Part shown: one piece after another, positions 21,570-53,027 of the stretch
How positions within the stretch are numbered: position 1 is the first letter of the stretch
Layout: each line of letters starts with the position of its first letter
Sequence record: NZ_CP010801.1
From: a plasmid
DNA length: 64,000 bases
Direction: 5' to 3' (one strand)
Position numbers and translations under genes: made by a program
Notes under the pieces: model-generated
What the model was told of the DNA's origin: nothing
The model's database searches: none
Seen by the model: the letters and a program-made list of their open reading frames with translations, nothing else

Positions 21570-21689
21570 GTCAAAGCCCGCCTGTCCAATGGACCAGGCG
21601 GGCTTTTTTTCACACTTAGAGGCTGAAGAAACAGAGTGTGGTACAACAAACACCAAAGCAACTCAGGGGGGTGAAATGAAGAAAAATGG

Positions 21690-22079
21690 GTGGCTGCACT
21701 CGCTACGGCGTCACTTCTGATCCCTGGTATATCGTCAGCGAGTGATTGGTATGCTTATTCGAGTGACAGTGATGCAAGGCACTTGATCGACATTTCCAGT
21801 CTTGTCGTTAAGCCCGACGGCACTCGCTTGGCGTGGGTGGCGCATATCTTCAATAAGCCTCAAGAAGCACCTAATCACAAGCGCTACGCCAAGCTTTCCA
21901 CGAGAGTGCTCGTCGATTGCGGACAAAGGAAATTGGCTTTGCTTTCTACCTATTTCTACGACGGCAAAGGTACTCTTGTTCAAGGCACATCATTCGATTT
22001 CATAAAACTGGTAGACGTACCTCCCGACTCAAATGGAGAAACATTAATGCGCGCAGTCTGCGCGGCGTCTCCACGGTAA
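21690..22079 (+). CDS. Small secreted protein in AT-rich islet
   Basis: GTG start. Signal-like N-terminus AALATASLLIPGISSA. Lower GC. Terminator at about 22098-22138. Confidence 0.3.
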   Translation: MAALATASLLIPGISSASDWYAYSSDSDARHLIDISSLVVKPDGTRLAWVAHIFNKPQEAPNHKRYAKLSTRVLVDCGQRKLALLSTYFYDGKGTLVQGTSFDFIKLVDVPPDSNGETLMRAVCAASPR

Positions 22080-22294
22080 GCGCGTAGCCTTAGCCTGAGT
22101 AAAACCCGCCTGTCGTAGGACACGGCGGGTTTTTTTGCCTCTGACGTGATTAAGAGCGAGCCGTTTTGATCTGCGGACGTTGCGAGAATATTTTAATGCA
22201 TGTATTGTCATGTCACGCAACATGCTGATTTATTGGGATCGGTTTCGCCTGACCCCAAACTACTTACAGATCCACTCACGCTTTAAGGCAACCC

Positions 22295-22591
22295 ATGTCC
22301 ACGTACGCAGAGTTAATGCAGCAGATCAACGATCTCAAGGTGCAAGCCGAGCAACTTCGAATTCGCGAGCGCGACCAGTTCATTGCTGAAGTGCGCGAGA
22401 GAATCCACGCGTACGAGATCACCCCCGCAGACTTGTTCGGAAAACCCAAGGGCGTCAAGGTAGTCGGGACGGTCGCGGTCAAATACCGGGACACCAACGG
22501 GAACGTCTGGTCCGGCCGCGGAAGGCAACCGTTCTGGCTGGTCAAGGCGCTGGCGGGGGGGAAGAAGCGCGAGGACTTTCTAGTTTCCTGA
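22295..22591 (+). CDS. H-NS-family nucleoid-associated protein (xenogeneic silencer)
   Basis: N-terminal coiled-coil. C-terminal H-NS DNA-binding motif WSGRGRQPFW. Confidence 0.8.
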   Translation: MSTYAELMQQINDLKVQAEQLRIRERDQFIAEVRERIHAYEITPADLFGKPKGVKVVGTVAVKYRDTNGNVWSGRGRQPFWLVKALAGGKKREDFLVS

Positions 22592-22599
22592 GCCCTTAC

Positions 22600-23630
22600 A
22601 TCTTCACGCTATCCAATGGCATCGCGTAAAAACGCTACGCCATACTTTACAAAGTCACGCAACGCTCTATAATAAGCCACATCGAGTTTGACTGGGCCGA
22701 GCGCGTGAGCGTCGAGGAAATGGCCCAAAGCTGATGCGGGTAAACGTCGCGCAAGACCGCATCTAACCCCCGGACATGGACGCCTGGCGGGACAGCGAAA
22801 CAGTCCAGGTCGGGTCTCGGATCCGACGCTGCCGAGCCTGGGGAAAGGCCCTCCGCGGACGCGGATCAAGGGCGGCACAACCAGGTGCACATCTGGCGCC
22901 GGAGCGAGTAACCGGCCATCCCTTACGCGAGGAGTCGATCCGCCGGGCCTGTCGGACAGCCTGGCGGGGATCCCAGGGACCGACTTAACCGGGGCGCTTC
23001 GCTGGGCTGAAGAACCGGGGATTGGGCATAGCAAAACCCAGCATCCTCATGCATGGCGATTGCCGACTTGGGCTTGATGCCGTAGGGACTGGCCTGCAGA
23101 GCGGGAAAACAGTCGCCAGCCGTGAGGGAACGCGCGGGCTGACGCGCAAGGGTCGGGCGGCACGAAACCTTTCCGCGCGAGAGCCGCGACTAGCGGAAGC
23201 CAGACAGAGCTCAGCACTGGCCCCTCAACCTTCACGCATGGCGATTCGCTGAAAGTCGGCTACCCCAGTCCCGCCGACTACATGCCGGCCCGCGCAAGCC
23301 GGATGAGCTTGGGATCGAGTCGCCAGCCGTGAGGGAACGCGCAGTGGTGATGCGCTGTACCGGTAGACGGGCGACGCGCGTCTGAAAGCCGCAAGCGGGC
23401 CTCGCGTGAGCCGCGCAAGCCGGGATACACACCTCCGGCCCCTCACCCCAAACCGGCCGCACGATAGGGCGGACGCTGGAACCCGTCACCAGCGCAGCAA
23501 GACGGCAGTGAAAGCCTGCGCCGGAGACGTAACCGGCACCAATACCGATGGTGGCGCTCAGCATGTATAGACGCGCCATTTTTTTGGCCCCAAACAGCAT
23601 TAATACACGCATCCGGCACTTTTTATTGTT
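22600..23630. other. About 1 kb GC-rich non-coding region with tandemly duplicated motifs (candidate structured RNA / long leader)
   Basis: No credible ORF. CATGGCGATTGC occurs twice (about 23044 and 23229). CTTGGG...GTCGCCAGCCGTGAGGGAACGCGC occurs twice (about 23075-23135 and 23300-23340). Many local hairpins. Confidence 0.2.
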
Positions 23631-23636
23631 TCGACG

Positions 23637-24341
23637 ATGACCACCACCCCCAAATCCCTGCGCGCCCGTGTCGAAGAGGTCGTGCGCGAAGCTGGCGGAC
23701 AGTATTCGCCGGGCCTGCGCGTGGCGCTGCCTGCAAGCCAGGTGCTTGAAATCGCTGGAGCGCTCGAGCGCGGCGTGCCGTCGCCCGAGGACGCGGCGCG
23801 CACAAAAGCGGCGCGCAGGGAAATCAAGAGCGAGTTGCATTCCGAGTTGGCCGCGGGCCTGAATCTGATGCGGGCGGCGATCGCCAAGCGCATTGGCGAG
23901 GCTGACGGCGACATGCGCGCGGCCATCCTGGCTAACGCGATGCTCGACGCGACGGAATCCGCCGTGGAAGAAGCAGGGTACTTCGCGACCAACACGACGC
24001 TGCAGCGCGCCGCCGTGGACCGGTACATCGAGCGTGTCGCGATCGCGTTCGGAGCGCTGGAGCGGCTGCATGCCTTCGCCAAGGCCCAGCTGCCGGAACC
24101 CATCGATCCGGCCATCGCTCCCGCAGCCATGGCCGTGAAAGACCTGGATCTGTCCACACGCACGCATAACTGCTTGCGGCTGGAAGGCATCAAGACGCTG
24201 GCTGACCTGATGGGCTGCCGCGCCGATGAATTGCTGCGCATTCCGAACCTCGGGCGTAAGGGGCTGGCGGAAATCGAGCACGAACTGGCGGCACGCGGCT
24301 TCCAGCTGGCCACGAGCCGCAATCAAGCCGGAGCTCGTTGA
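23637..24341 (+). CDS. Protein with RNA-polymerase alpha-subunit C-terminal-domain (alphaCTD)-like HhH domain
   Basis: C-terminal LDLSTRTHNCLRLEGIKTLADLMGCRADELLRIPNLGRKGLAEIEHELAARGFQL matches the RpoA CTD fold signature. N-terminal part is novel. Confidence 0.5.
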   Translation: MTTTPKSLRARVEEVVREAGGQYSPGLRVALPASQVLEIAGALERGVPSPEDAARTKAARREIKSELHSELAAGLNLMRAAIAKRIGEADGDMRAAILANAMLDATESAVEEAGYFATNTTLQRAAVDRYIERVAIAFGALERLHAFAKAQLPEPIDPAIAPAAMAVKDLDLSTRTHNCLRLEGIKTLADLMGCRADELLRIPNLGRKGLAEIEHELAARGFQLATSRNQAGAR

Positions 24342-25255
24342 TGATCGCAATCGACCTGTTCGCCGGCGCTGGCGGATTCTCGGAGGGGGCCAAGCTGGCC
24401 GGGGTGCACGTCGCTTGGGCAGCCAACCATTGGCCACTCGCCGTGCAATTTCACGCAGCCAACCATCCCGGCACGTCGCACAAATGCCAGGACCTGCAGC
24501 AGGCCGACTGGCGGGATGTTCCGCGCCACGACATACAGCTGGCGTCTCCGGCGTGCCAAGGTCACAGTCCGGCACGCGGCAAGGAACGGCCGCACCACGA
24601 TGCGCTACGCAGCACGGCATGGGCCGTGGTCAGCTGCGCTGAATACCATCGCAGCCCGATCGTCCTGGTAGAGAACGTCCCGGGCTTCAGGGACTGGACT
24701 CTATACCCGGCTTGGGAACACGCGATGCGCAGTCTGGGCTACAGCGTGTCCCCGCATCTGGTGGATGCCGCCGATCATGGCGTGCCGCAGCACCGCGAGC
24801 GGCTGTTCCTGGTCTGCACCCAGAGCAAGGCTCCGCTGCAGCTGCGCCTGCCGCGCCGCGAGCACGTCTCCATTGGCAGCGTGATCGATTGGGACGCTCA
24901 CACATGGACGCCCATCGACAAGCCCGGCCGCAGTCCGAAAACCTTGCAGCGCACCGAGGCCGGCCGCGCTGAATTCGGCTCGCGCTTCGTCGCACCCTAC
25001 TACAGCAGCGGCAGTGGTTTGAAAGGCCGCAGCATCCACCGACCCATCGGGACCATCACCACACGCGACCGCTGGGCGGTGATCGACGGTGATCGCATGC
25101 GGATGTTGCAGGTCCCCGAGATCAAGGCGGCAATGGGCTTTTCGCCCGACTACACGCTGCCGGCAACCAAGAAGGAAGCCATGCACATGCTGGGCAATGC
25201 CGTGTGCCCGCAAGTTGCCGCCGATCTGCTGAACGCGCTGCGCAACGCCGCGTAG
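24338..25255 (+). CDS. DNA (cytosine-5)-methyltransferase
   Basis: Motif I DLFAGAGGF, motif IV PCQGHS, motif VI LVENV, motif X LGNAV. Confidence 0.85.
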   Translation: MMIAIDLFAGAGGFSEGAKLAGVHVAWAANHWPLAVQFHAANHPGTSHKCQDLQQADWRDVPRHDIQLASPACQGHSPARGKERPHHDALRSTAWAVVSCAEYHRSPIVLVENVPGFRDWTLYPAWEHAMRSLGYSVSPHLVDAADHGVPQHRERLFLVCTQSKAPLQLRLPRREHVSIGSVIDWDAHTWTPIDKPGRSPKTLQRTEAGRAEFGSRFVAPYYSSGSGLKGRSIHRPIGTITTRDRWAVIDGDRMRMLQVPEIKAAMGFSPDYTLPATKKEAMHMLGNAVCPQVAADLLNALRNAA

Positions 25256-25268
25256 ACAAGGGCGTCCC

Positions 25269-25817
25269 ATGACGAACACTACCGAGAGCACACACACCAT
25301 GCCGCGCATCTACCTCGCTGGTCCTGATCTGTTCTTCCCGGATGCCGAAGCGCGCTACGACGCGCTGAAGGATCTGTGCGCACGCTATGGACTCGAAGGC
25401 GTCGCGCCGACGGATGGCCAGACCTTCCCCATCGAGCCAACTGCGGCCTGTGCGCGCCGCATTCGCGAGCACGACCTTTCGCAGCTGCGCAGCGCGGACG
25501 CCGTGCTCGCCAACATTACGCCGTTTAACGGTCTGGAGCCGGACTCGGGCACGGCCTACGAAATTGGCTTTGCTGCCGCGCTCGGGATGCCTGTCGTCGC
25601 GTACTGCCTCGATGGCCTGGACACTCGAACCCGAACGCTGCGCGCGGGGCGGCTGCTCAATGTGCATGGTCGTGATGATGAGGGCCTGCTCGTCGAGAAC
25701 TTCGGGCTACACGCCAATCTGATGCTGTGCGCAGAACATCCAACGTTTTCTTCGGCGGATGAGGCAGTTCGCGCTCTCGCCGAGATCCTATTTGGCGCTG
25801 CGCAAGCCGCTGCCTGA
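25269..25817 (+). CDS. Nucleoside 2-deoxyribosyltransferase-like protein
   Basis: IYLAGPDLF N-terminal motif and DSGTAYEIGFAAALGMPVVAY nucleophile region. Possible start at 25299. Confidence 0.55.
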   Translation: MTNTTESTHTMPRIYLAGPDLFFPDAEARYDALKDLCARYGLEGVAPTDGQTFPIEPTAACARRIREHDLSQLRSADAVLANITPFNGLEPDSGTAYEIGFAAALGMPVVAYCLDGLDTRTRTLRAGRLLNVHGRDDEGLLVENFGLHANLMLCAEHPTFSSADEAVRALAEILFGAAQAAA

Positions 25818-25923
25818 AGCCATTACCGCTCAATGGGCGCCTGGCGCAGCAGCCGTTTTGCAGGCGGCAAGCTGTGAAGCAGGGGGAGCCAGGCGCCCAC
25901 CCTTCAATGCTCGTAGATAGCCG

Positions 25924-26106
25924 ATGGATACAACTCTCGAAGAAGCACAAGCCGCTGCCGCCAGATTTGCGGACGAAAGCTGCTTACCCCAAACCGTCTA
26001 CCTCTTGAAGGACTCCGGCGGCTGGTGGCACACCAATCCGCTGGCCAGCTTGCTGGTGTCGGCCGAAGTCTTCGTGACCGTGCTGCCACTGCGCTACTTC
26101 GCGTGA
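25924..26106 (+). CDS. Small hypothetical protein
   Basis: 60-aa ORF only. Confidence 0.2.
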   Translation: MDTTLEEAQAAAARFADESCLPQTVYLLKDSGGWWHTNPLASLLVSAEVFVTVLPLRYFA

Positions 26107-26154
26107 GATCTGAAATGGGAGTCCAACTTCGCTTGAGATGACAGGGGACGCTTC

Positions 26155-27201
26155 ATGGCGGAAAACACAAACATTGCATGGTGCGATCACACCTTCAATC
26201 CGTGGGAAGGTTGTCAGAAGGTTGGCCCCGGCTGCGACCACTGCTACGCGGAGACGCGAAATGCTCGATTCAGTGGCGGTACGTCCGTCAATTGGGGGCC
26301 TGGCGCGCCGCGTCGGCGCACTTCGGCTGCCAACTGGAGAAAGCCGATAGCCTGGAACAGGAATGCTGGCGAGTTTTACGCCCAACACGGGCGAAGGCAG
26401 CGCGTCTTCTGCGCGAGCCTCGCCGACGTGTTCGACAACGCAGTCGATCCGACGTGGCGCGAGGATCTATTCGCTCTGATCCGCGCAACCCCAAATCTTG
26501 ACTGGCTGCTGCTCACAAAACGCATCGGCAATGTACCCAGCATGGTTTCGCTTATTCCGGGCTGGCTGCCAGAAAACGTCTGGCTCGGCGCCACGATCGT
26601 CAACCAGGCCGAGGCCGATCGCGACATCCAGAAGTTACTCGAGACGCCCGCGCGCGTGCACTTCCTGTCGATCGAGCCGATGCTTGGGCCGATCAACCTG
26701 GAGAGCGTGGCGTGGCCGTCGATAGCCGAGCATCGCGTCGATGCGCTACGAGGAGGCTACTGGAACAAGGCGGGCGTGCTGGCCTGTGGGCCGGCCGCGG
26801 GTCTTGGCGAACCTCGCGGCGGATTCACGAACCACAGCGATATGCCGGGGCGCATCGACTGGGTGATCGTCGGCGGAGAGAGCGGTCCTGGCGCGCGGCC
26901 AATGCACCCGGACTGGGCTCGAGATCTGCGTGACCAGTGCGTGTCGGCCGGCGTGCCCTTTCTCTTCAAGCAATGGGGGGAGTTTGTGCCGGGCTCTGGC
27001 GACTTCGGTGCTGGGCAATACGTCACAGCGGCTGTTGCACGCGACGGTCGCATTGTCCCAGGTGGATTTGACGCGGCCGCCTATCCGCGCGGCGCAACTT
27101 CCGCAGACGGCTGGGCAATGGTCCATCGGGTTGGGAAGAAGGCGGCCGACCGCCTGCTCGACGGCGCCCAGCACGACCAATTTCCGCATGTGCGCTCGTG
27201 A
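26155..27201 (+). CDS. Phage Gp37/Gp68-family protein
   Basis: N-terminus IAWCDHTFNPWEGCQKVGPGCDHCYAE matches the family-defining motif. Confidence 0.6.
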   Translation: MAENTNIAWCDHTFNPWEGCQKVGPGCDHCYAETRNARFSGGTSVNWGPGAPRRRTSAANWRKPIAWNRNAGEFYAQHGRRQRVFCASLADVFDNAVDPTWREDLFALIRATPNLDWLLLTKRIGNVPSMVSLIPGWLPENVWLGATIVNQAEADRDIQKLLETPARVHFLSIEPMLGPINLESVAWPSIAEHRVDALRGGYWNKAGVLACGPAAGLGEPRGGFTNHSDMPGRIDWVIVGGESGPGARPMHPDWARDLRDQCVSAGVPFLFKQWGEFVPGSGDFGAGQYVTAAVARDGRIVPGGFDAAAYPRGATSADGWAMVHRVGKKAADRLLDGAQHDQFPHVRS

Positions 27202-27210
27202 GGAATAGCC

Positions 27211-27510
27211 ATGCCTTGCTACATCGAACGAACGAAGGACGGCGGCGTGATGTTCCTGTGCGGCGACCTTGGGCCGCATTGCGCAGCCGATAAATGCTGC
27301 GCGCTGGGCGTCAATTTGTGCGATTTCCCCGTAGGCGAGGGCAAGACCTGCGACTTGCCACTGTGCAACAGCCACGGCTACGAGGTTGCGCCGAACGTGC
27401 ACTACTGCCCCGGCCATCTCATTCTGTGGAACGCATACCGAGAATCTGGCGCGGTTGAGCGCGAGCTTTCCAACGTGGTTCCGCTTGGGCGGACGCCGAA
27501 GCCGGAATGA
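27211..27510 (+). CDS. Small Cys-rich protein
   Basis: Ten Cys in 99 aa. RBS GAGGAATAGCC then ATG. Tightly linked. Confidence 0.3.
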   Translation: MPCYIERTKDGGVMFLCGDLGPHCAADKCCALGVNLCDFPVGEGKTCDLPLCNSHGYEVAPNVHYCPGHLILWNAYRESGAVERELSNVVPLGRTPKPE

Positions 27511-27550
27511 GCAAGTAATCCGTCTGCCAACACCATCATCCAACGCACGC

Positions 27551-28726
27551 ATGCAAACGCTCTTACCGCTCAACTTCGTTCCGCGCACGCCACCCGCTTC
27601 TTTCTGGCAGCCGGTCAGCGCAAAGACGGACTTGCCGCCCGTGACCACCACGCCGGAGGTTGCCGCCGCGCTCTCTCGCGACTGCGTGGTCGCCGTGGGC
27701 GTGAGCGGCGGCAAGGATTCAGTCGCGTGCGCGCTCGCCACCGCGCGCTATTTGGATGAGATCGGGCACACTGGTCCGCGCGTGCTGATCCACTCGGATC
27801 TGGGGCGCGTCGAGTGGCGCGACAGCCTGCCATCATGCGAGCGCCTGGCGCACGCGCTGGGCTGGGAACTGCTGGTCGTCACGCGCCAAGCCGGCGACAT
27901 GCTGGCGCGATGGGAGGGCCGATGGCAAAACAACGTCAAGCGCTATGCTGACCTGGCTTGCGTCAAGCTGATACTGCCGTGGAGCACGCCGTCTATGCGC
28001 TTCTGTACGAGCGAGCTCAAGGTCGCCATCATCTCGTCGGCGCTGCGCAAGCGATGGCCGACGCAGGAGATCGTCAACGTGTCGGGCATCCGCCGCCAGG
28101 AAAGCGCCGCACGAAGCAAGATGCCTGTGTCAGTGCGCATGCCAAAGCTTTGCCGGAAAGGAGCCGAAGGGCTTTCATGGCACCCGATCATCGAGTGGAA
28201 GGTGCAGGAGGTGTTCGGAGCCATCGCGGACGCGGGCCTGCAGCTGCACGAGGCCTATACGCGCTATGGCATGAGCCGCGTCAGCTGCGCGTTCTGCATC
28301 ATGTCGTCGGCTGCCGACCTGGAGGCCTCTGTGTCGTGTATCGACAACCAGCCGGTCTACCTGCAGATGGTCGAGCTCGAGGCTGCCAGCACGTTCGGAT
28401 TCCAGTCTGGGCGTTGGCTGGCCGATGTCGCACCCCATCTGCTATCCACGGACCTGCAAGCCAAGGTGGAGCGTGCCAAGCTGGCCGCTGCCGAGCGTGA
28501 AGCCTTGGAGGCCAGGCTGCCGGCACACCTGCTGTACACCGGCGGCCTGCCAACGGCTGTGCCGACGTTCGATGAGGCTACCTTGGTCGGGCAGATCCGC
28601 CGGCGGGTTGCCGAGCTTGTCGGCATCGAGGTCAGGTATCTCCATGCCGCCGAAATCCGCGACCGATACGCGGAGCTTCTTGATCGGCGCGAGGAGCATG
28701 CGCCGAACTCTCTCGTCATCGTTTGA
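27551..28726 (+). CDS. PAPS-reductase-like PP-loop ATP pyrophosphatase (DndC/BrxP-like family)
   Basis: PP-loop VAVGVSGGKDS. Start chosen at internal Met 27551. Confidence 0.6.
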   Translation: MQTLLPLNFVPRTPPASFWQPVSAKTDLPPVTTTPEVAAALSRDCVVAVGVSGGKDSVACALATARYLDEIGHTGPRVLIHSDLGRVEWRDSLPSCERLAHALGWELLVVTRQAGDMLARWEGRWQNNVKRYADLACVKLILPWSTPSMRFCTSELKVAIISSALRKRWPTQEIVNVSGIRRQESAARSKMPVSVRMPKLCRKGAEGLSWHPIIEWKVQEVFGAIADAGLQLHEAYTRYGMSRVSCAFCIMSSAADLEASVSCIDNQPVYLQMVELEAASTFGFQSGRWLADVAPHLLSTDLQAKVERAKLAAAEREALEARLPAHLLYTGGLPTAVPTFDEATLVGQIRRRVAELVGIEVRYLHAAEIRDRYAELLDRREEHAPNSLVIV

Positions 28727-28740
28727 TCCTGAACATCGCT

Positions 28741-29010
28741 ATGAGTCCATCTAATCTCGATGCCCCTGGGTACGGCAATGCCCTGGACGTCCTGCGTCGC
28801 ATCGTGGAGGAAGCTGACCGTGATCCATTCATACCGGTCGGCCACGTCATTGAGCACGTCGTGCCGCAGGCGCGCGCCGCTCTCGCGGCAGCGCTTGCCG
28901 ACGAGGTGTGCCAGTTCTGCGGCGTGCGGACCTTTTCGCCGTGCGATGCCCCGCCTGCTGATGTGTGCGAGCAGGCTTTGATGCGTAATATGACGATGGC
29001 CGAGCGCTAA
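28741..29010 (+). CDS. Small hypothetical protein
   Basis: ORF with ATG 28741. Abuts the IS insertion. Confidence 0.3.
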   Translation: MSPSNLDAPGYGNALDVLRRIVEEADRDPFIPVGHVIEHVVPQARAALAAALADEVCQFCGVRTFSPCDAPPADVCEQALMRNMTMAER

Positions 29011-29087
29011 TTAAGGGCGAGGAGTAGAACGTTAGGCGCTTTGGATCGGCCTGCGCACCTGTCTTGCCTGAATGAAGCCGAGATATA

Positions 29088-30201
29088 CTGTACATATATG
29101 TGGGGTATCCACTTAGCTCCACCAGCACAGGATAACTGGATGGATATACAGTATTCGTATGCTACACCGTCTCGACCCGGTTCACTACATCCGCATACGT
29201 CACAGGGCCGGTAACGACCGCTTGCTGAAGCAGCCGATAGAACAAGAGACCGCGCGAGCCCGAGGTGCGGCGATTGAAGCGGAACACGAACTCATCCAGG
29301 TAGGCGTCCAGATGTTCGGGCTGAACCGAGCCGTGATGCGTGCCGAGAATCCAGCGTTTGACCAGTGAAGCAACCCGATGAACGCCAGCCATCGAAACGT
29401 GAGCTGGCACCTCGGCACCCAGCATCACATTGCGCTGGTGTTCGTAACCCAGCTTGCTCAATGTCCGGTAGGCTGCTGACCCGTCAGTTCTGACTTGGGC
29501 GCCAGGCTCAATCGACGCCTGTATGAACGGGATGACGCATTCGGCGCCATCGTTCTGGATGCGCTGCAAGCGTATCCGGCCGAAGCCCTTGGGCTGAAGC
29601 ATTTCGACCGCAAGGATGACCAGCACTTTGCTCGTGCGGTTCTTGCGGTTGATGGCCGAGATAGGGGCCTCTCGGTCCGTGATGGCCAGGTAGGTCTCGT
29701 CAACCTCTACACACCCCTTCAGGCGTTCGCGGTCCGGTCGCACCATAGCGCGGCGAAACCGGTGCAGCATCGTCCAAGCGGTCTGGTAGCTTCCCAGGCC
29801 TAGCACCCGTTGCAAACCAAGGGCGCTGACGCCTTGCTTTTGATTGGTCAGATACCACGCACCAGCCAGCCACACACGTAGCGGGGTACGGGTCTTGTCG
29901 AATATCGTGCCAGCGGTCACCGTCGTTTGGTGAGCGCAACTGCGACACATCAGGCGCGTGCGGCTCGACCGATAAGGCTCGGCCGCTACGCCGCAATCAG
30001 GGCAAACGAACCCCTGCGGCCACCGCAATCCCTCCAGGTAGGACAGGCAAGCCTCTTCCGTCCCGAACCGGTCCAGAAACTCGTTCCAGTTACGGGGGTA
30101 GTCCTTCCCCGGTTCTGGGGGTAATATCTGCTTTACCTGTATATCCATCCAGTGATTCTGGCATGGCTGGAGCTAAGTGGATAGCCCTTACATATATACA
30201 G
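29088..30201 (-). mobile_element. IS1595-family (ISXO2-like) insertion sequence
   Basis: About 65-bp imperfect terminal inverted repeats (CTGTACATATATGT...GGATGGATATACAG / CTGTATATCCATCC...ACATATATACAG) flank a single DDE transposase. Confidence 0.7.
29162..30148 (-). CDS. IS1595-family DDE transposase
   Basis: N-terminal Zn-ribbon (FGTEEACLSYLEGLRWPQGFVCPDCG). 328 aa. DDE-type core. Confidence 0.8.
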   Translation of the reverse strand: MDIQVKQILPPEPGKDYPRNWNEFLDRFGTEEACLSYLEGLRWPQGFVCPDCGVAAEPYRSSRTRLMCRSCAHQTTVTAGTIFDKTRTPLRVWLAGAWYLTNQKQGVSALGLQRVLGLGSYQTAWTMLHRFRRAMVRPDRERLKGCVEVDETYLAITDREAPISAINRKNRTSKVLVILAVEMLQPKGFGRIRLQRIQNDGAECVIPFIQASIEPGAQVRTDGSAAYRTLSKLGYEHQRNVMLGAEVPAHVSMAGVHRVASLVKRWILGTHHGSVQPEHLDAYLDEFVFRFNRRTSGSRGLLFYRLLQQAVVTGPVTYADVVNRVETV

Positions 30202-30627: not shown

Positions 30628-31272
30628 ATGAATACATCTGATAGCGGGTTCGTAGAAGTCAAAAGCAAAGTAGCAAAGCCCGAATTGCAGGCATTCATGG
30701 AACACCTGAGCGCCTTCCATGAGGGCGACACGGATGCCCAGCGGGCGGCAGAGATCCGCGCTCAGGACGAGAACGACGGCCTGGATTCACTGAAGCGCCT
30801 ATTCGATCTGGCGAACGGGAGCAGTGGACAGTGCCGTCACGTCGCGCGCTTCCTGCTTGGTCTGTACAACGGCACTCGATTCCCGTTCGATCTGACTGAC
30901 TTCCGATGCGTTGATGCCTCGATCTTTGAGGACATGATGCGAGTGCTGCGGATGGACAGCCGGCCACGGGCAGAAGTCCACACGTATTTCCCGCGCGGCG
31001 GCGAGCGTTTCGAGCAACTGGCGCAGGACTGGAATCTGTACAAGACCGAGTGGGAGCCGGCGGGCAGCGGGTTCACGCGCAGACGCAGCGCGTACCGCCT
31101 CGACATCGAGGCAGGCGTGCGCGGCGAGACGCTGGTGTGGAAGTGGTCTGTATCGCGGTGGGGCGGCGACAGTAAAAAGGTTGCCAGCGGCGCGGCATGG
31201 TCGGCCGAGAGTGCGAAGTACGAGATTGATGCCTGGTTCGAGCGCGGCGGCGAGACGCCTTACGAAGACTGA
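30628..31272 (+). CDS. Hypothetical protein
   Basis: 214-aa ORF with no recognised motif. Confidence 0.4.
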   Translation: MNTSDSGFVEVKSKVAKPELQAFMEHLSAFHEGDTDAQRAAEIRAQDENDGLDSLKRLFDLANGSSGQCRHVARFLLGLYNGTRFPFDLTDFRCVDASIFEDMMRVLRMDSRPRAEVHTYFPRGGERFEQLAQDWNLYKTEWEPAGSGFTRRRSAYRLDIEAGVRGETLVWKWSVSRWGGDSKKVASGAAWSAESAKYEIDAWFERGGETPYED

Positions 31273-31274
31273 CA

Positions 31275-32036
31275 ATGAAAACGGATCTGATCGAAAAGTA
31301 CGCACCGGTGCTCTGTGCGTCGACACCTCCAGTGGTGCGTGACCCACGCCTATTGATGGATGCAAGCGGCGACGTGAAGATCTACTATGCGCCCTTCGAA
31401 TACATCAACCCGAGTGCACGGCTCGTGCTGGTCGGGATCACACCGGGCCCCACCCAGATGGTCAATGCCAACAACGAGGCGCGGCGCGCTCTTCAGGCGG
31501 GCAAGTCCAGCATCGAGGCGATGCAGGCCGGAAAGAGCGTCGGCGCTTTCAGTGGCGAGCCGCTGCGGAGTAACCTGATCAATCAACTCAACCATTGGGG
31601 CTTCCAAAAGTGGCTCGGCCTGAGCGATTCGGCCGACCTATTCTCCAGGTCACAGCACTTGGTGCAGACTACCTCTCTCCTACGCTATCCGGTGTTCGTC
31701 AAGGACGGTGATTACCGTGGCACTCCAGATATGACCAAGCATCCGCTGCTGCGGAAATACCTGCTCGAATACTTTGCGGCGGAGGTCGAGGAGCTCAAGG
31801 AAGCCGTATTTGTCGGTCTCGGGCCACAGGTCCAGAAGGTGCTCGATCGCCTGATCCACGAGCGCGTCCTGAGTCCAGAACGGGTCATCGGCGGGATGCT
31901 GCACCCGTCCGGTAACTGCACATACCGAATCAACTATCTTATCGGTGACAGAAACGCGCCAGTCCCGCACGCCACCAACCCCGTGCCTTACGACCAGGGC
32001 CGACGAGCGTTTCGGGAGCGCTTCATTGGCGCGTGA
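31275..32036 (+). CDS. Uracil-DNA-glycosylase-superfamily-like protein
   Basis: VLVGITPGP (GEAPG-like motif A) and GMLHPSGNC (HPS motif B-like). Confidence 0.3.
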   Translation: MKTDLIEKYAPVLCASTPPVVRDPRLLMDASGDVKIYYAPFEYINPSARLVLVGITPGPTQMVNANNEARRALQAGKSSIEAMQAGKSVGAFSGEPLRSNLINQLNHWGFQKWLGLSDSADLFSRSQHLVQTTSLLRYPVFVKDGDYRGTPDMTKHPLLRKYLLEYFAAEVEELKEAVFVGLGPQVQKVLDRLIHERVLSPERVIGGMLHPSGNCTYRINYLIGDRNAPVPHATNPVPYDQGRRAFRERFIGA

Positions 32037-33120: not shown

Positions 33121-33507
33121 TCAAACCTTGCGGATCGAGCCGCTGTACTGCGCTACGATCGGGTCGGCCGTAACTAGAAGGATGCCTTCCACCAGCGACT
33201 GCGCCACCAGGATGCGGTCGAATGGATCCTTGTGCAAAGGCGGCAGGCTATCGACCATGACCGTGTGCTCACTGGTGATGGGTAATTCCAGATAGCCATT
33301 GTCTAAGAGCCCTCGGCGTAGCAGCCTGGGATCAACGCGAAAGTCCTGCCGGCCCAGTCCTCGCTTGATAGCCACCTCCCACAGGCTGGCAGCGCTGAAC
33401 ACCAGCTCGTGCGTCGGGTCCTGGATGAGAGCGAGCGTGTCGCGCGACAGCTTGTCAGGCTGGCCAGCGGCCCACAGCAGCAGATGAGTATCGAGCAACA
33501 ACTTCAC
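33121..33507 (-). CDS. vapC: PIN-domain toxin (VapC family)
   Basis: MKLLLDTHLLLW...ASLWE...VTAD acidic PIN residues. Overlaps the antitoxin stop. Confidence 0.8.
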   Translation of the reverse strand: MKLLLDTHLLLWAAGQPDKLSRDTLALIQDPTHELVFSAASLWEVAIKRGLGRQDFRVDPRLLRRGLLDNGYLELPITSEHTVMVDSLPPLHKDPFDRILVAQSLVEGILLVTADPIVAQYSGSIRKV

Positions 33508-33743
33508 GCGTCGCCCCCGAACATCTGTTCAATGGCATCGGCACCCATGCGATCGAAGTCCGCCGGCACTGCGATCTCGCCGACCAGGAAGCCAACACGG
33601 CGCGGCTGAGCGGGCGCATCGAGAGCGGTCACCTTGGCCAGCGGCTTGCCAGCCTTGGCGATCACGAAGGATTGGCCTCGGGCTGCCTTGTCGACCAGAC
33701 GCGACAGGTGCGTCTTCGCGTCGTGGATGTTGACGATTTCCAT
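33504..33743 (-). CDS. Phd/YefM-type antitoxin
   Basis: MEIVNIHDAKTHLSRLVDKAARGQSFVIAKAGKP is a Phd/YefM signature. Confidence 0.75.
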   Translation of the reverse strand: MEIVNIHDAKTHLSRLVDKAARGQSFVIAKAGKPLAKVTALDAPAQPRRVGFLVGEIAVPADFDRMGADAIEQMFGGDA

Positions 33744-41951: not shown

Positions 41952-44198
41952 TCACGCCACGAGGCGAAAAATTCCTGTCTCGTCCTCCTGCGATTTGTTC
42001 GCCAGCAACTGGCAAAGGCGCGTCACGCGATTGGCCGCATCGCGCTGGCGCACGGCCGCGGCGATCGCGCGCGACTGGCCCACCAGCACCACCAGCTTTC
42101 GCGCCCGCGTGACACCTGTGTAGAGCAGGTTGCGCTGGAGCATCGCCCAGTGCTGCGTGACCATCGGAATGATCACCGCCGGCGCCTGCGAGCCCTGCGA
42201 CTTGTGGATCGTCATCGCGTACGCCAGGCGCATGTCGTCCAGATCGTCGAACGGCACTGCCACGTGTTTGCCGTCGAACGACACGTGCAGGACCGAGTTG
42301 TCGTCATCGACGGCCTCAACCAGGCCCATGTCGCCGTTGAAGATCTCCAGGTCGTAGTTGTTGCGGGTCTGCAAGACCTTGTCGCCAACACCGAAGCACG
42401 CGCCATAGCGGCGAACGACGGCCGACGGATGAGGGTTGATGGCCTGCTGCAACGCTTCGTTGAGCGCTCCAACTCCGCATGCGCCCTTGTTCATCGGCGA
42501 GAGCACCTGGATGTCGCGCACCGGGTCGAAGCCGAACTTGGCCGGCAAGCGGTTCGTGATCAGATCCCGGATGACATCCGCGCAGGCCTGCGCGACGGCG
42601 GCCGGCACGGCATCCTCGTCCTTGATCGACAAGGCGTCGCTCAAGCTTGTCGTGTTCTTCTCCGTCATGAGGAAGAAATCGTCACCGTGCACGCCTTGCT
42701 CGGGGTTCTTCCCATGGTTGATGGCGTGCGCGTTTCGGATGATCAGGCTGCCCTGGGCCTGCCGGAAAACCTCGTCCAGGATCACGACCGGGACCCGGCC
42801 GCTGCGGATAATGTCGCCCAGCACGTTGCCGGGCCCAACCGAGGGAAGCTGGTCAACGTCGCCTACCAAGATCAGGGCGGTGCCGCGCTTCAGGCCGCGC
42901 ATCACGTTGCGCATCAGCGGCACGTCCACCATCGACATCTCGTCGATCAGCAGCGCGTCCGCCTGCACCTGCTGCAACTCCTTGGAGTCGCCCCCCTTGA
43001 GGCCGAGCAGACGGTGAATCGTGCTGGCTGGTTGCCCAGTGGCCTCGGACGCGCGCTGTGCAGCCTTGCCCGTAGGGGCCGCCACAGCCACGTTCAGCCC
43101 CATCTCGCGCATGGCCGCCAGAATGACGTTGGTGGTCGCCGTCTTGCCGACACCGGGTCCGCCTGAGATGACGCACACGCGGCTGTTGAGCGCCATGACC
43201 ACTGCCTGGCGCTGCTTGTTGGCCAGCTTCATGTTCACGCGCGTCTCTATCCGCGCAATCAGCGCAGCGGTGCCGCCAGCCGGCTCCTTCCATGGCGCCA
43301 TCAGATCGGCCTTCTCGATCAGGCGCTCGCAGACGAATTCCTCGGCGGCGGCCAGCCAGCGGAAGCAGACGCAGTCCTCGTGCTGCACGAACTGCGGATT
43401 GTCGACCTGGTCATTCAGGTCCGCATCGAGGATGGGCGCAATACACTCGGCACCGACACCGAGCGCCTCGACGTTGAGCTCAAGGAATTTCGGGCGGGGG
43501 ACGCCGACGTGCCCCTGGCCAACGGCCTCCTGCATGACGTAGATCATGCCGGCGCGTATGCGCTGCGGGCTGTCCGTGGGGATGGCCAGGCGTTTGGCGA
43601 TCGTGTCCGCCGTCTTGAAGCCGATTCCGCGGATCTCCAGGCACAGCCGGAAAGGATCGGACTGGATTAGCTGGACGGCCTTGTCGCCCCAGGCGCGGTA
43701 GATGCGCCGACAGAGGGCGGCGGAGACGTTCTGGCTGTGCAGGAACAGCATGATGCTGCGCACCTGCCGCTGCTCATCCCATGCCGCCTTGATGCGCTCG
43801 ACCGTGGCGGGGCCGAAGCCCTTGATTCCAATGAGCTTGTCGGGCTCTTCATCCAGCACGCGCAGGACATCCACACCAAAGGCGGCGACCAGTGCGGCGG
43901 CCTTCTTCTGACCAATGCCGGCAATCGTGCCCGAGCCCAGGTAGGCGGTAATGCCTTCGGGGGTGGTCGGGTTCGTCGCGGTGATGCGGTCCGCCTTGAA
44001 CTGCGGCGAGCCATTGCGCTGAGTCCACTTGCCGGTGGCAGTCACAAACTGCCCCGGACCGGCGTTGGTCACGCCGACACAGTGGATCTCCGGCGGGCCG
44101 TTGCGGTCGGGGTTGCGCAGTACGAGAACGCTCCAGTCGTTCTCCTCGCTGCGAAACGTGACGCGTAGCACCTCGCCGTTCAGGGTCGCTTCAGCCAT
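41952..44198 (-). CDS. RecD2-like SF1B helicase
   Basis: Tandem HhH. Walker A GGPGVGKT. Motif II LLIDEMSMVD. SF1 C-terminal motifs. Start at MAEATLNGEV. Confidence 0.8.
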   Translation of the reverse strand: MAEATLNGEVLRVTFRSEENDWSVLVLRNPDRNGPPEIHCVGVTNAGPGQFVTATGKWTQRNGSPQFKADRITATNPTTPEGITAYLGSGTIAGIGQKKAAALVAAFGVDVLRVLDEEPDKLIGIKGFGPATVERIKAAWDEQRQVRSIMLFLHSQNVSAALCRRIYRAWGDKAVQLIQSDPFRLCLEIRGIGFKTADTIAKRLAIPTDSPQRIRAGMIYVMQEAVGQGHVGVPRPKFLELNVEALGVGAECIAPILDADLNDQVDNPQFVQHEDCVCFRWLAAAEEFVCERLIEKADLMAPWKEPAGGTAALIARIETRVNMKLANKQRQAVVMALNSRVCVISGGPGVGKTATTNVILAAMREMGLNVAVAAPTGKAAQRASEATGQPASTIHRLLGLKGGDSKELQQVQADALLIDEMSMVDVPLMRNVMRGLKRGTALILVGDVDQLPSVGPGNVLGDIIRSGRVPVVILDEVFRQAQGSLIIRNAHAINHGKNPEQGVHGDDFFLMTEKNTTSLSDALSIKDEDAVPAAVAQACADVIRDLITNRLPAKFGFDPVRDIQVLSPMNKGACGVGALNEALQQAINPHPSAVVRRYGACFGVGDKVLQTRNNYDLEIFNGDMGLVEAVDDDNSVLHVSFDGKHVAVPFDDLDDMRLAYAMTIHKSQGSQAPAVIIPMVTQHWAMLQRNLLYTGVTRARKLVVLVGQSRAIAAAVRQRDAANRVTRLCQLLANKSQEDETGIFRLVA

Positions 44199-44338
44199 GA
44201 CGTTGCGAAATCTTGCTCTTCCTCCGATGTTGGAAACAAAGTATGCTTTACGTTGCGCATCTTGGCAATCTTTATGAAACAAACATATTGCTGATGTTGT
44301 GTGCCAGGCTTTTTCTCTTTCCGTCCTGACAACCAGTC

Positions 44339-44362
44339 CTGAATCCCGGCAATTCCGCCGGT
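44339..44362 (+). promoter_or_regulatory. Upstream module copy 2
   Basis: CAACCAGTCCTGAATCCCGGCAATTCCGCCGGTC. Confidence 0.5.
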
Positions 44363-44380
44363 CCATGACAGGAGAAAGAG

Positions 44381-45394
44381 ATGGAATTCATCGAAGGCAT
44401 CAAGGTGCAATACAAGGAGCTCGTCGCTGACGCCAACGGCCAGTCCTACATTCCGTGGGCCGCTGCGCTCGCCATCGCTGAGCGCCCGCAGCAAAACGTG
44501 GTGATGTGGAAGGGCAATCCTGCGCGTACGTTGCTGGGCGGGGCGGTCGTGGCCATCGACATGAACGGACATCGGACCTGGCTGCCGATCCTCGATGCGC
44601 GCAACGAAGCGGTCCCGACCTCGCGTCTGACGTCTCGCGACGTGAACGACGCGATCAATCGCTGCCGCGCCAAGGCGATTGCCTCGGTGCTTGGTGTTGG
44701 ACTTGGCCTGTACGGCAAGTACGACGAGGCAGCGGCGTTTTTGCGCGCCCTCAACGTAGGTCCAGCAACTGACCTCGCAAAGATGGCGCCCCTGACCGTG
44801 AAAAAGGGGGGTGACAAGGGGCCGTCGTACGTTTCATGGCCCGCCGCGCTGGCGGCATGCCGGATCACCGACCCGGAGTTCAGCTGGGAGGTGATCGAGT
44901 ATGAGTCGGTTGACCCGGTCAGCGGGGAGATTGGCGAGCAGCCGTACGTCGTCATTGGCCAGAGCTATATGGTCTCGGTCAAGGTGACCTACAAGGGCCA
45001 GAGCCACATCGAGATGCTGCCCATCATGGGTGTCGTCGAGGTGAACGGCAAACGGCGCGAGCACATGGCGCTCACGACCCCGACGCCGCACGATTGGAAC
45101 CGCGCCGTCATGCGTTGTCTTGCAAAGGGCATCGCGGTGCAGTCCGGTTATGGCCTGAACGTCTACGCGAAGGAAGACCTGGAGGCGTTGCAGACCACGT
45201 TCGTTGGCAGTGGGTCGCAGCCCGCAGGAGCCTCCGTCGAGGCGATCAACGCGTTGCGCGAAACGCTTTCGCGAGTCGACCGGTCCGAAGACTCGTTGAT
45301 GACCTGGCTCGGCAAGCCCGGCTTGGCGCTTGACACCCTGACCGCAGCGGAGATCCAACGCGCTATGCGTGCGCTGGAACCCAAGGCTGCCTGA
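44381..45394 (+). CDS. Hypothetical protein (possible phage Sak/Rad52-like annealing protein)
   Basis: N-terminal SYIPWAAALAIAER...MWKGNPARTLLGG. Confidence 0.25.
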   Translation: MEFIEGIKVQYKELVADANGQSYIPWAAALAIAERPQQNVVMWKGNPARTLLGGAVVAIDMNGHRTWLPILDARNEAVPTSRLTSRDVNDAINRCRAKAIASVLGVGLGLYGKYDEAAAFLRALNVGPATDLAKMAPLTVKKGGDKGPSYVSWPAALAACRITDPEFSWEVIEYESVDPVSGEIGEQPYVVIGQSYMVSVKVTYKGQSHIEMLPIMGVVEVNGKRREHMALTTPTPHDWNRAVMRCLAKGIAVQSGYGLNVYAKEDLEALQTTFVGSGSQPAGASVEAINALRETLSRVDRSEDSLMTWLGKPGLALDTLTAAEIQRAMRALEPKAA

Positions 45395-45451: not shown

Positions 45452-45482
45452 CAACCATTTGCGAAACCGGCCTGTTGCCGGA
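45452..45482 (+). promoter_or_regulatory. Upstream module copy 3 (degenerate)
   Basis: CAACCATTTGCGAAACCGGCCTGTTGCCGG. Confidence 0.4.
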
Positions 45483-45498
45483 AAGAAAGGAGAGAGTC

Positions 45499-46038
45499 AT
45501 GAAGAGCAACATCATTGGCCTAGCCGGTATCAAGCGCAGCGGCAAGGACACAGCAGCCAATGCGCTGCGCGCGGCCGGTTACGTGACCGTGGCCTTCGCC
45601 GACGCGCTGCGCGAAGAGATTTTTGCGCAATACCCTCAGGCTCGCAGAATCGCCGATGAGGACAAGGAGAAGCCTCAGGATTTCCTGAGCGGGAAGTCTT
45701 TGCGCGATCTGCTGATCGAAGTTGGAATGGGCCGGCGGGCGCAAGACCCGGACTACTGGGTGAAGATCCTGCGCGATCGCATCCGGGGCCTAGTCGCAAG
45801 CGGAAAGCGCGTGTGCGTCACGGATACGCGCTTGCCCAATGAGTTCGCGATGCTGCGTGAGCTCGACGCCTTCATCGTCTGGATCAATCGGCCTGGCATC
45901 GAGCCAGGGGCGCACGTTACCGAGCAGGACCACTCTTCGCTGTGCGATGCCGTGGTGCACAACGACTCGACGCTGCAGACACTGCACCAGAAGCTCATCG
46001 CCCTGCTGACGCAGATCGACATGGAGGTAGCCGCGTGA
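45499..46038 (+). CDS. Deoxynucleoside-monophosphate kinase-like P-loop protein
   Basis: IIGLAGIKRSGKDT P-loop. Confidence 0.55.
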   Translation: MKSNIIGLAGIKRSGKDTAANALRAAGYVTVAFADALREEIFAQYPQARRIADEDKEKPQDFLSGKSLRDLLIEVGMGRRAQDPDYWVKILRDRIRGLVASGKRVCVTDTRLPNEFAMLRELDAFIVWINRPGIEPGAHVTEQDHSSLCDAVVHNDSTLQTLHQKLIALLTQIDMEVAA

Positions 46039-48777: not shown

Positions 48778-49584
48778 ATGCCAGGACCAGACTTCTTTCA
48801 AACCATGATGGGCCGCAACTTTTTCGAGGGCACTATGCCGTCGATCGCGCGCAACCTTGCGACGATTGCCGAGGCGCTGAAGCGTAGCAATGAGCTACTC
48901 GAGCAGAAGCCCTCGACAGCGGAAGGTCAGCCGCGCGATGCGATACCGCTGAACAAGCTGCAGCGCATCGCAGTCAGCGGCTATGAGGACGGAACGTATT
49001 CCGCACTGCGGTCGGTCCGTGAGTTCGAAGGAATCGGCGACACGCTGATTCTGGCCATCGTTCGTGAACTAGAGGACGCAGATAGCACGACATGCGCGCT
49101 GAATCGTCTGCAGGGCATGGCCGCTCAGATCTCGCAAGTCGTCGGCGCCATCGAATCGTCCGCTGGCCAGCCGCCGGCAACGGCAGAATGGGCGCCGGAG
49201 AAGGGCGTCATGACCGACGCGCAATTCATTGCCCGTCGTGGTTGTCATTGCCCCTCTTGCGGGAGCAATGACCTTTCCTGCCAGGGGCATATCGAAGGCG
49301 AGGAAGCTACCGCTTCGCAATCGGTGAAGTGCGAAAACTGCAGTGCAACCTGGGTCGACACATATTCGTTGAGCGGATATGCCGAACTGGATGGTGGCAT
49401 TGACCTGAAGTCAGTCCAATCCATTGTCGATGAGGTGCGGAGCCGCGCGCAGACGTACAGATTCGCGATCGGAAGCGAAGTCCAGGCGCGCGAAGCCGTC
49501 AATAAAACTTGCGATCAGGTCGATCCTTCATTGAGTGAGGCCGAAAGAACGATCGCTGTGAAGCTGCTCCGAGCCGCCGATTGA
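48778..49584 (+). CDS. Hypothetical protein with internal Zn-ribbon
   Basis: CHCPSCG...CENC. Confidence 0.35.
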   Translation: MPGPDFFQTMMGRNFFEGTMPSIARNLATIAEALKRSNELLEQKPSTAEGQPRDAIPLNKLQRIAVSGYEDGTYSALRSVREFEGIGDTLILAIVRELEDADSTTCALNRLQGMAAQISQVVGAIESSAGQPPATAEWAPEKGVMTDAQFIARRGCHCPSCGSNDLSCQGHIEGEEATASQSVKCENCSATWVDTYSLSGYAELDGGIDLKSVQSIVDEVRSRAQTYRFAIGSEVQAREAVNKTCDQVDPSLSEAERTIAVKLLRAAD

Positions 49585-49640
49585 TGTTCCACCAAACCGC
49601 CTCGCGAAAGCGCAGGCGGTTTTTTCTTCTTCGCGCTGAG

Positions 49641-49676
49641 CAACCACTCCTGAAAAACCGGCAATCCCGCCGGACT
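49641..49676 (+). promoter_or_regulatory. Upstream module copy 8
   Basis: CAACCACTCCTGAAAAACCGGCAATCCCGCCGGAC. Confidence 0.5.
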
Positions 49677-49691
49677 TTGCAGGAGGAAAAA

Positions 49692-52583: not shown

Positions 52584-53027
52584 TTGCCAATGAAAGAATC
52601 GCGATATATGATTTCTATAGCAAGAAACCGGACTCAACAAATGGGAACCAACGCAATCGTAGGGAAGCAGAATCAGGCGACCGCCGGCGCGGTGCTGACG
52701 AAGGCCGCCCTGCGCTCAGCGGACCTGCTGGGGTTGAATAACGCCATGCTTGCACGTGTGGTCGGTGTGAGCGAGTCGCAAGTCTCGCGCATGGCCGCCG
52801 GCCAGCGGCAACTGGAGATCGGGACCAAACCAGCAGAGCTCGCGACATTGCTCGTGCGTGTCTACCGTTCTCTGGATGCCATGGTCGGTAACAGCGACCA
52901 GCACCGCAAGCTCTGGATGTCTTCCTTTAACCGCGCCTTCAACGAAGTCCCGAAGGATGCGATCCAGAAGGTGGACGGCCTCGTGCGGGTGGTGAGCTAT
53001 CTGGACGGCGCGCGCGCCATCGCCTGA
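52584..53027 (+). CDS. Xre/MbcA/ParS-type antitoxin
   Basis: HTH (LLGLNNAMLARVVGVSESQVSRMAAGQRQ) plus C-terminal toxin-binding domain. Start uncertain (52584, 52608 or 52641). Confidence 0.55.
   Translation: MPMKESRYMISIARNRTQQMGTNAIVGKQNQATAGAVLTKAALRSADLLGLNNAMLARVVGVSESQVSRMAAGQRQLEIGTKPAELATLLVRVYRSLDAMVGNSDQHRKLWMSSFNRAFNEVPKDAIQKVDGLVRVVSYLDGARAIA

Follow-up and report, generated by a model that had tools for sequence, protein, structure and literature searches.

The plasmid stretch analyzed here, a 64,000-nt window of sequence record NZ_CP010801.1, contains a run of tightly spaced genes (23637–28726) in which a C5 DNA cytosine methyltransferase stands among relatives of nucleoside 2-deoxyribosyltransferases (NDT), of the phage Gp37/Gp68 proteins (DUF5131) and of PAPS-reductase-like PP-loop enzymes. 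The question raised by this locus is whether these genes are the steps of one pathway, as was proposed in an initial annotation that took them for a self-DNA hypermodification or anti-restriction module, or whether they have been brought together while acting separately. We favor the second answer with a probability of roughly 60%: the region would be a mosaic accessory island anchored by its methylase and made of independently acting genes with likely anti-restriction or establishment functions. The anti-restriction half of the earlier proposal remains reasonable, whereas its single hypermodification pathway is not supported by the synteny of the genes in relatives, by the truncation of the PP-loop gene and by the type of NDT encoded. 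All biochemical activities named below are predictions from sequence.

Eight co-directional open reading frames (ORFs) on the + strand make up the array (23637–29010). When profiled against Pfam, NCBIfam and PADLOC with curated cut-offs, the six ORFs first named were all recovered on the + strand where they had been placed, with significant domain matches, but their extent needed correction: the PP-loop gene starts at 27551 (391 aa, as in the gene calls of public assemblies) and not at the upstream TTG at 27386, and two small ORFs (25924–26106 and 28723–29010) had been left out. The methylase starts at the ATG at 24341. The array reads as follows.

23637..24341, + strand: alphaCTD-domain protein (234 aa); RNA_pol_A_CTD (PF03118) at 4e-16 over residues 164–218, of the helix-hairpin-helix (HhH) DNA-binding type
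24341..25255, + strand: orphan C5 DNA cytosine methyltransferase (304 aa), its start overlapping the stop of the alphaCTD gene
25269..25817, + strand: NDT family enzyme (182 aa); PF05014 at 3.9e-33, 114.5 bits against a cut-off of 28.8
25924..26106, + strand: 60-aa ORF (o60) with coding GC content at third codon positions (GC3)
26155..27201, + strand: DUF5131 / phage Gp37-Gp68 protein (348 aa); PF07505 at 1.9e-89, 299.8 bits
27211..27510, + strand: 99-aa Cys-rich ORF (cys99) with coding GC3; weak match to phrog_13747
27551..28726, + strand: PAPS-reductase-like PP-loop ATP pyrophosphatase (391 aa); PAPS_reduct (PF01507) at 8.8e-9, 36 bits against a cut-off of 22.5
28723..29010, + strand: 95-aa ORF with coding GC3, its start overlapping the stop of the PP-loop gene

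In all eight ORFs, GC3 is 0.70–0.80 and exceeds the value at second positions (GC2), a composition of the coding type. The intergenic gaps range from −4 to 106 nt, and stops and starts overlap at two junctions (alphaCTD/methylase and PP-loop/95-aa ORF). Such close packing makes co-transcription of the array probable.

The exact gene set is confined to one lineage of Ralstonia plasmids of ~190 kb, where it always occurs at ~100% identity (the longest contig with identical proteins has 190,542 bp). The identical proteins are named Ralstonia, with one member labelled as plasmid-borne in R. mannitolilytica, and the index of the collection lists the identical DUF5131 protein in 109 blocks; the many fragmentary copies labelled as unrelated species would be Ralstonia contamination of other sequencing projects. 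A search for near-identical DNA with the cluster and 46 kb of flanks returned only short partial matches in a plasmid collection that does not hold this plasmid itself. Within-lineage synteny was read in 23 contigs, and in every one of them the order alphaCTD, methylase, NDT, o60, DUF5131 and cys99 is constant and ~100% identical. In 15 of the 23, conversely, only the first 68 codons of the PP-loop gene are left, the identity to the window stopping exactly at 27755 while the rest of the block is identical; the PP-loop gene is dispensable. A 6170-bp block ending at the same position (21586–27755) is 100% identical in three loci (L002, L004 and L005) and holds an Adhesin_E-like gene, an H-NS gene, a leader, the alphaCTD, methylase, NDT, o60, DUF5131 and cys99 genes and the first 204 nt of the PP-loop gene. 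The surroundings of the block in these three loci are otherwise unrelated, with a Tn3 transposase, czc/cnr metal resistance genes and a sulfate transporter, which suggests that 21586–27755 moves or recombines as a unit.

Outside this lineage the set falls apart. About 26 independent diverged PP-loop loci were examined, from Burkholderiales, Pseudomonas, Rhizobiales, Acidiphilium, Spirosoma and a viral metagenome, and none has a homologue of the NDT, alphaCTD or cys99 genes within 4–10 kb. DUF5131 lies near the PP-loop gene in one of them only, the P. aeruginosa plasmid R716 (L042, 825–5155). There, the gene of an NA37 nucleoid-associated protein that has an FtsK-gamma domain precedes those of a PP-loop homologue (56%), of a 230-aa protein and of a DUF5131 protein (32%). 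Likewise, in 80 DUF5131-bearing viral (prophage) loci, no homologue of the PP-loop, NDT or alphaCTD genes turned up within 6 kb. Conservation of the gene neighborhood, proposed at the outset as a check, therefore largely failed, since the genes are not syntenic beyond one near-clonal lineage. The combination had also been called unusual; it is indeed found in a single lineage, although trivially so in view of how closely related its members are.

The individual genes also lead separate lives. A methylase 90% identical to that of the array stands on a Xanthomonas oryzae plasmid without any other array gene around it. The NDT family occurs on 120 plasmid records, and in three plasmid loci with NDT homologues an H-NS gene lies directly upstream in two and an integrase directly downstream in two, again without other array genes. 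Homologues of cys99 occur in four of the 80 DUF5131-bearing prophage loci, 2.5–5 kb distant; as a conserved partner of the DUF5131 or PP-loop proteins cys99 was rejected, being missing from 13 plasmid contexts and never adjacent in the 80 prophage contexts. The 95-aa ORF has no homologue outside the plasmid lineage among the loci compared.

Several of the same families recur in other arrangements on megaplasmids of Cupriavidus, Methylibium and Burkholderia. On a Cupriavidus plasmid the order is Mrr_N–N6/N4 methylase, o60 homologue (59%), PP-loop gene (68%), DUF7673 (56%) and integrase, which places the o60 homologue between the methylase and PP-loop genes. A methylase of this type also adjoins DUF5131 on C. 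taiwanensis, Methylibium and pMOL28 plasmids, and on three Cupriavidus plasmids (two of C. taiwanensis, and pMOL28) DUF5131 is followed by a Lar-like restriction-alleviation gene and by Endonuclease_NS, a non-specific nuclease. In one of the three, C. taiwanensis STM 8555, the Lar-like gene and the nuclease are present without an adjacent methylase; a homologue of the nuclease lies 7 kb upstream in the window. These islands (pMOL28, C. taiwanensis) resemble the Ralstonia island in their families (DUF5131, methylase, o60 homologue, PP-loop, DUF7673 and Endonuclease_NS), in their shuffled order and in adjoining an integrase and a partition module. They differ in that their methylase is of the Mrr_N–N6/N4 type and not C5, and in their Lar-like genes, which are not in the Ralstonia block, whereas that block alone has the alphaCTD protein, the NDT and cys99. 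Compared with the Cupriavidus layouts, the Ralstonia block looks as if the methylase type had been swapped, the NDT inserted after the methylase, and DUF5131 and cys99 inserted between o60 and the PP-loop gene. Among prophages, 11 of the 80 loci have a C5 methylase no more than 6 kb from DUF5131; the closest independent repeat of the DUF5131–methylase pairing is an IMG/VR prophage contig (L123, 6001–7976), in which a C5 methylase 63% identical to that of the window lies 12 nt downstream of DUF5131. The recurrence of a DNA methylase, of any type, beside DUF5131 or PP-loop genes is suggestive. We picture the array as having been assembled by cassette shuffling, its genes acting independently and not as steps of one pathway. 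Because the related Cupriavidus islands carry Lar-like genes beside the same families, an anti-restriction purpose is a reasonable reading.

The product of 24341–25255, the proposed anchor of the island, is a predicted C5 cytosine methyltransferase (PF00145 at 1.7e-38, 133 bits against a cut-off of 22; TIGR00675 at 109.1 against 100.65). Compared with M.HhaI, it has motif I (DLFAGAGG), motif IV (SPACQ), motif VI (ENV) and motif VIII (QHRER, of the form QxRxR). In motif IV the catalytic Cys is kept within SPACQ and not the usual PCQ, the Pro being shifted by one position. Scans with Pfam, NCBIfam and PADLOC found no nuclease domain in any ORF of 23637–29010, and the methylase is flanked by the alphaCTD protein and the NDT, not by the adjacent cognate endonuclease of a Type II restriction-modification (R-M) system. 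The methylase is an orphan, as was first noted, and the locus is not a classic R-M system. Orphan methylases are enriched and prominent among plasmid anti-defence genes (Samuel et al., 2024, PMC11541004); here, the enzyme would methylate plasmid (and host) DNA and thereby blunt restriction in new hosts. Like the islands described in that work, the Ralstonia island has a stand-alone plasmid methylase without a cognate nuclease, a co-directional array of small ORFs with nucleoid-protein genes, and relatives of its neighboring genes beside Lar-like genes. It differs by adding NDT, DUF5131 and PP-loop enzymes, which are not mentioned in the main text of that paper.

The alphaCTD protein keeps the equivalents of the DNA-contacting residues R265, N268, G296 and K298 of E. 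coli alphaCTD when aligned to alphaCTD structures, while its N-terminal ~150 residues are almost unique. A word-indexed search returned no relative besides the protein itself, and an exhaustive search of 1.84 billion representatives returned thousands of alphaCTD-domain matches and one other full-length relative only. Full-length relatives are so scarce that no neighborhood comparison is possible for this gene. Probably coupled to the methylase in translation, the protein may be a minor-groove DNA-binding regulator or adaptor.

The phage link first suggested for the DUF5131 protein has been confirmed: it matches phrog_2045 at 2e-108, and the family occurs on at least 584 viral contigs and on plasmids too (411 records). 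Three Cys in the motif C20-x6-C27-x2-C30 are invariant in 11 homologues. DUF5131 is listed as a subgroup of the radical SAM superfamily (PMC9477430), and a literature search on DUF5131 yielded this family classification only; the sequence matches no solved structure. The protein is most likely an uncharacterized Fe-S enzyme of the radical-SAM type. It shares its family and three-Cys motif with the DUF5131/TcmP radical SAM mobile pair (TIGR04471/TIGR04474) and with the PADLOC candidate systems PDC-M30 and PDC-M41, but no TcmP or "A" partner is present in the array, where the recurrent neighbor is a DNA methylase.

The PP-loop protein has an SGGKDS loop that is invariant in 30 homologues, and five invariant Cys (C137, C152, C246, C249 and C263) compatible with an Fe-S site. 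Its AlphaFold 2 (AF2) model (pLDDT 83) has a helical C-terminal domain of ~130 residues peculiar to a plasmid clade. The best folds are the Fe-S tRNA thiolases TtuA/NcsA, TilS and APS reductase, over the PP-loop domain only; a specific family could not be drawn from this search, which gave generic PP-loop matches at TM ~0.3, and the sequence matches no solved structure. Homologues number more than 2410, with the family on 412 plasmid records. An ordinary CysH, which had been named as the identity that would count against a modification enzyme, is rejected together with APS reductase (NF002537 at 19.2 against 154 bits; TIGR02055 at 17.6 against 235 bits). The placement in the family of DndC and BrxP holds at the level of the PF01507 superfamily and not for those proteins themselves. 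Although the protein shares with DndC, SspD and BrxP this superfamily, conserved Cys compatible with an Fe-S site and DNA-modification contexts, the matches are weak and partial (TIGR03183 for DndC at 16.8 against 290; PADLOC DndC 25, SspD 20 and BrxP 41 bits, the last over ~110 residues), the gene stands alone on plasmids, and none of the partner genes DndA/B/D/E, SspB/C/E and BrxA/B/C/L was found among the ORFs scanned. The best phage family is phrog_424 (2.4e-20). The phage PAPS reductases of this family are likewise stand-alone PP-loop genes in variable accessory regions of mobile elements, but the annotated phage examples are only 27–32% identical, and the plasmid clade has a helical C-terminal domain of its own. 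One phage PAPS reductase reportedly helps its phage to evade Dnd (Piel et al., 2022, cited in PMC13551039). In the Ralstonia island, the PP-loop protein would be an ATP-dependent adenylating enzyme, probably Fe-S dependent, and it might counter or mimic sulfur- or modification-based host defences.

Several observations weigh against an island of independent genes with an anti-restriction purpose. Tight packing and overlapping stops and starts would fit functional coupling as well. The truncated PP-loop copies are all 100% identical, so that the truncation is recent and long-term dispensability is not proven by it. Plasmid R716, though unrelated, has its PP-loop and DUF5131 genes only one gene apart. 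The recurring methylase adjacency could mean that the DUF5131 and PP-loop enzymes act on DNA with the methylase; its rates are lower bounds (the seed panel held no Dam-type enzymes) and come without a background rate. As for location, DUF5131 lies inside F-type tra operons on Burkholderia plasmids and the methylase lies downstream of mobF on the Xanthomonas plasmid, but the scan of ORFs in the 64-kb window revealed neither a relaxase nor an oriT, and a location in the leading region cannot be claimed for the array.

In another proposal, DUF5131 and the plasmid-clade PP-loop protein are uncharacterized enzymes that modify nucleic acids or counter restriction alongside whichever methylase is present. 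This would explain their placement beside C5 or N6/N4 methylases as well as the R716 arrangement, yet we consider it unlikely. If true, the two proteins of the Ralstonia plasmid might add a second, non-methyl modification of DNA or RNA, or destroy a cofactor or signal of a defence system.

An equally improbable alternative is that the array protects its host, with DUF5131 as an effector or sensor and the methylase as the self-marking half of a restriction-like system whose nuclease hides among the small ORFs. DUF5131 does match the PADLOC candidate components PDC-M41B and PDC-M30B (1e-49), the best PADLOC match of the methylase is DrmMII, the PP-loop superfamily takes in DndC, SspD and BrxP, and toxin–antitoxin genes (PIN/PhdYeFM and RES) lie nearby. 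However, the partner "A" components of PDC-M30/M41 and TcmP are missing, no neighbor matches any PADLOC model, and TIGR04471 scores 43.4 against a cut-off of 355 on the DUF5131 protein, well below the equivalog level. Nucleases, helicases or ATPases of the kinds that characterize DISARM, BREX or Dnd are missing from the block. DUF5131 is common in prophages and also occurs inside tra operons, and the Lar-like company in related islands points the opposite way.

Somewhat less probable still is metabolic cargo, that is, an NDT for nucleoside salvage, a PP-loop protein for sulfur or cofactor metabolism and a methylase left over from a lost R-M system. NDT and PAPS-reductase-family proteins have housekeeping relatives, and in some of its contexts the block is accompanied by metal-resistance and transporter cargo. 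Conversely, the PP-loop protein falls far under the CysH/APS-reductase cut-offs and has an extra helical domain, and it is on plasmids and prophages that the PP-loop family, DUF5131 and the NDT clade are concentrated, in the company of small ORFs, methylases, Lar, H-NS, HU and integrases.

The remaining alternative, one pathway that hypermodifies the element's own DNA, counts the NDT among its enzymes. The solved structures nearest to this protein are the NDT of T. brucei (2a0k) and L. mexicana (6qai), with a full-length alignment at E 1e-20 in which the catalytic-Glu motif GTAYEIG aligns with GTAFEVG of 2a0k; unlike these, the array enzyme is plasmid-encoded, in a family often found directly after an H-NS gene. 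It is a single domain without a DNA-binding extension, which, with its closeness to enzymes of free nucleosides, argues against base exchange on DNA and points to free nucleosides or nucleotides as substrates. Acting on free deoxynucleosides or nucleotides, the NDT would alter their pool rather than DNA itself. A second NDT copy (172 aa, AJW47719.1), in the same 90%-identity cluster as that at 25269–25817, is present on the same Ralstonia plasmid, and three NDT matches fall on the Caballeronia zhejiangensis plasmid NZ_CP084287.1; NDT genes tend toward multiple copies on these megaplasmids.

In the hypermodification pathway, an unusual base, supplied or exchanged by the NDT, would be adenylated or thiolated by the PP-loop protein, DUF5131 would contribute radical chemistry, and the methylase and a downstream protein resembling uracil-DNA glycosylases (UDG) would complete the system. 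In its favor, the ORFs are co-directional, tightly spaced and overlapping, the PP-loop and DUF5131 genes are one gene apart on R716 and repeatedly found beside DNA methylases, a UDG-like gene lies downstream, and a dNMP kinase gene lies at 45475–46038. We nevertheless regard this as the least probable explanation: synteny of the set stops at one near-clonal lineage, most contigs read have a truncated PP-loop gene with the remainder intact, NDT homologues recur with H-NS or an integrase and without the other genes, and the NDT itself resembles free-nucleoside enzymes. Nor did a Pfam scan of ~60 window ORFs find the hallmark enzymes of 7-deazaguanine (Dpd) or 5hmC/5hmU-derived hypermodification clusters, with no TGT/DpdA, QueC/D/E, thymidylate-synthase-like hydroxymethylase or glycosyltransferase among them.

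If the array is indeed a mosaic anti-restriction island, it represents one more plasmid with a shuffled set of an orphan methylase and auxiliary enzymes that ease entry into new hosts. This would not be surprising, and the island would provide useful context for the biology of Ralstonia, Cupriavidus and Burkholderia megaplasmids. The lead lies in two large uncharacterized enzyme families of mobile elements, DUF5131 and the plasmid PP-loop clade, that occur repeatedly beside DNA methylases. The natural full and PP-loop-truncated variants in Ralstonia isolates offer a ready comparison for effects on DNA modification and restriction evasion.

The neighbors on either side bear on how the array may be expressed and how far it extends.

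22295..22591, + strand: H-NS-like nucleoid protein (98 aa), the upstream neighbor of the array; PF00816 on the identical gene in public contigs
22646..22673, + strand: sigma-70 promoter-like site, TTTACA-16-TATAAT, 11 of 12 consensus matches
22674..23636, + strand: GC-rich (~0.66) non-coding leader of ~960 nt, without coding GC3 signal and with no gene called in public assemblies
29100..30188, − strand: IS1595-family insertion sequence, transposase at 29162–30148; Zn_ribbon_IS1595 and DDE_Tnp_IS1595 on the identical gene
30628..31272, + strand: DUF7673 protein, PF24720 at 6.6e-32, a co-directional continuation of the array
31275..32036, + strand: putative divergent UDG-superfamily protein (253 aa), weakly matched at the fold level, with no Pfam match

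The promoter-like site, just 3' of the H-NS gene, is the sole strong + strand site within 22000–29300 and a possible start of the array transcript. The leader that follows holds two diverged units of ~207 nt (23030–23240 and 23225–23460). Both units contain a perfect 25-mer, AGTCGCCAGCCGTGAGGGAACGCGC, at 23111 and 23318 (0 expected), and a box TCAyGCATGGCGATT; within the boxes, TGGCGA and TCGCCA complement each other. No Rfam family matches the leader at the gathering score or at E <= 1, TRF finds no tandem array in it, and there is no long hairpin of the single-stranded DNA promoter type; its RNA folding is modest (z = −1.95). The leader has no match in the plasmid collection, and the 25-mer has none in viral contigs. 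It may be a long leader, a non-coding RNA or a regulatory repeat, and the promoter-like site and leader together (22646–23636) may drive the array.

Downstream, the array is interrupted by the IS1595 element, which is present in one locus of the lineage (L007) and missing from an otherwise identical one (L006). In L006 a 134-aa ORF lies between the 95-aa ORF and DUF7673, where the element sits in the window. DUF7673 also neighbors PP-loop homologues on Caballeronia and Cupriavidus plasmids. The 253-aa protein beyond it had been called UDG-superfamily-like, and this stands in a weaker form: UDG folds top the list for its AF2 model (pLDDT 90; SMUG1, UdgX and family-4 UDG in the PDB) and the motifs GITPGP (motif 1) and HPSG are present, but the matches are weak (E 7e-4, TM ~0.36) and at the fold level only. 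An invariant Thr replaces the catalytic Asn of SMUG1/MUG. The family is strongly conserved, with 439 homologues at 65–99% identity in many taxa.

The array is flanked by type IVb pilus genes on one side (in a Pfam scan of the window, a secretin, PilO, ATPases and a shufflon-type PilV) and by an integrase/ParA/ParB/RepA module on the other. Together with the Ralstonia plasmid assignment, these genes bear out the carriage on a mobile element that had been assumed. The same scan found RecD2, Sak and YqaJ. A toxin–antitoxin pair sits between the array and the integrase/ParAB/RepA module, and the plasmid also carries, at 41952–63196, a phage-like module for replication and recombination.

33121–33507, − strand: PIN-domain toxin, which pairs with the PhdYeFM antitoxin
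33504–33743, − strand: PhdYeFM antitoxin
41952–44366, − strand: RecD2-type helicase
44381–45394: Sak single-strand annealing protein
45475–46038: dNMP kinase (PF21448)
49581–50627: YqaJ exonuclease
53027–53728: RES-domain toxin
56979–58979, − strand: double AAA ATPase
59022–60881: DUF3701 integrase
62177–63196: Toprim/CHC2 primase

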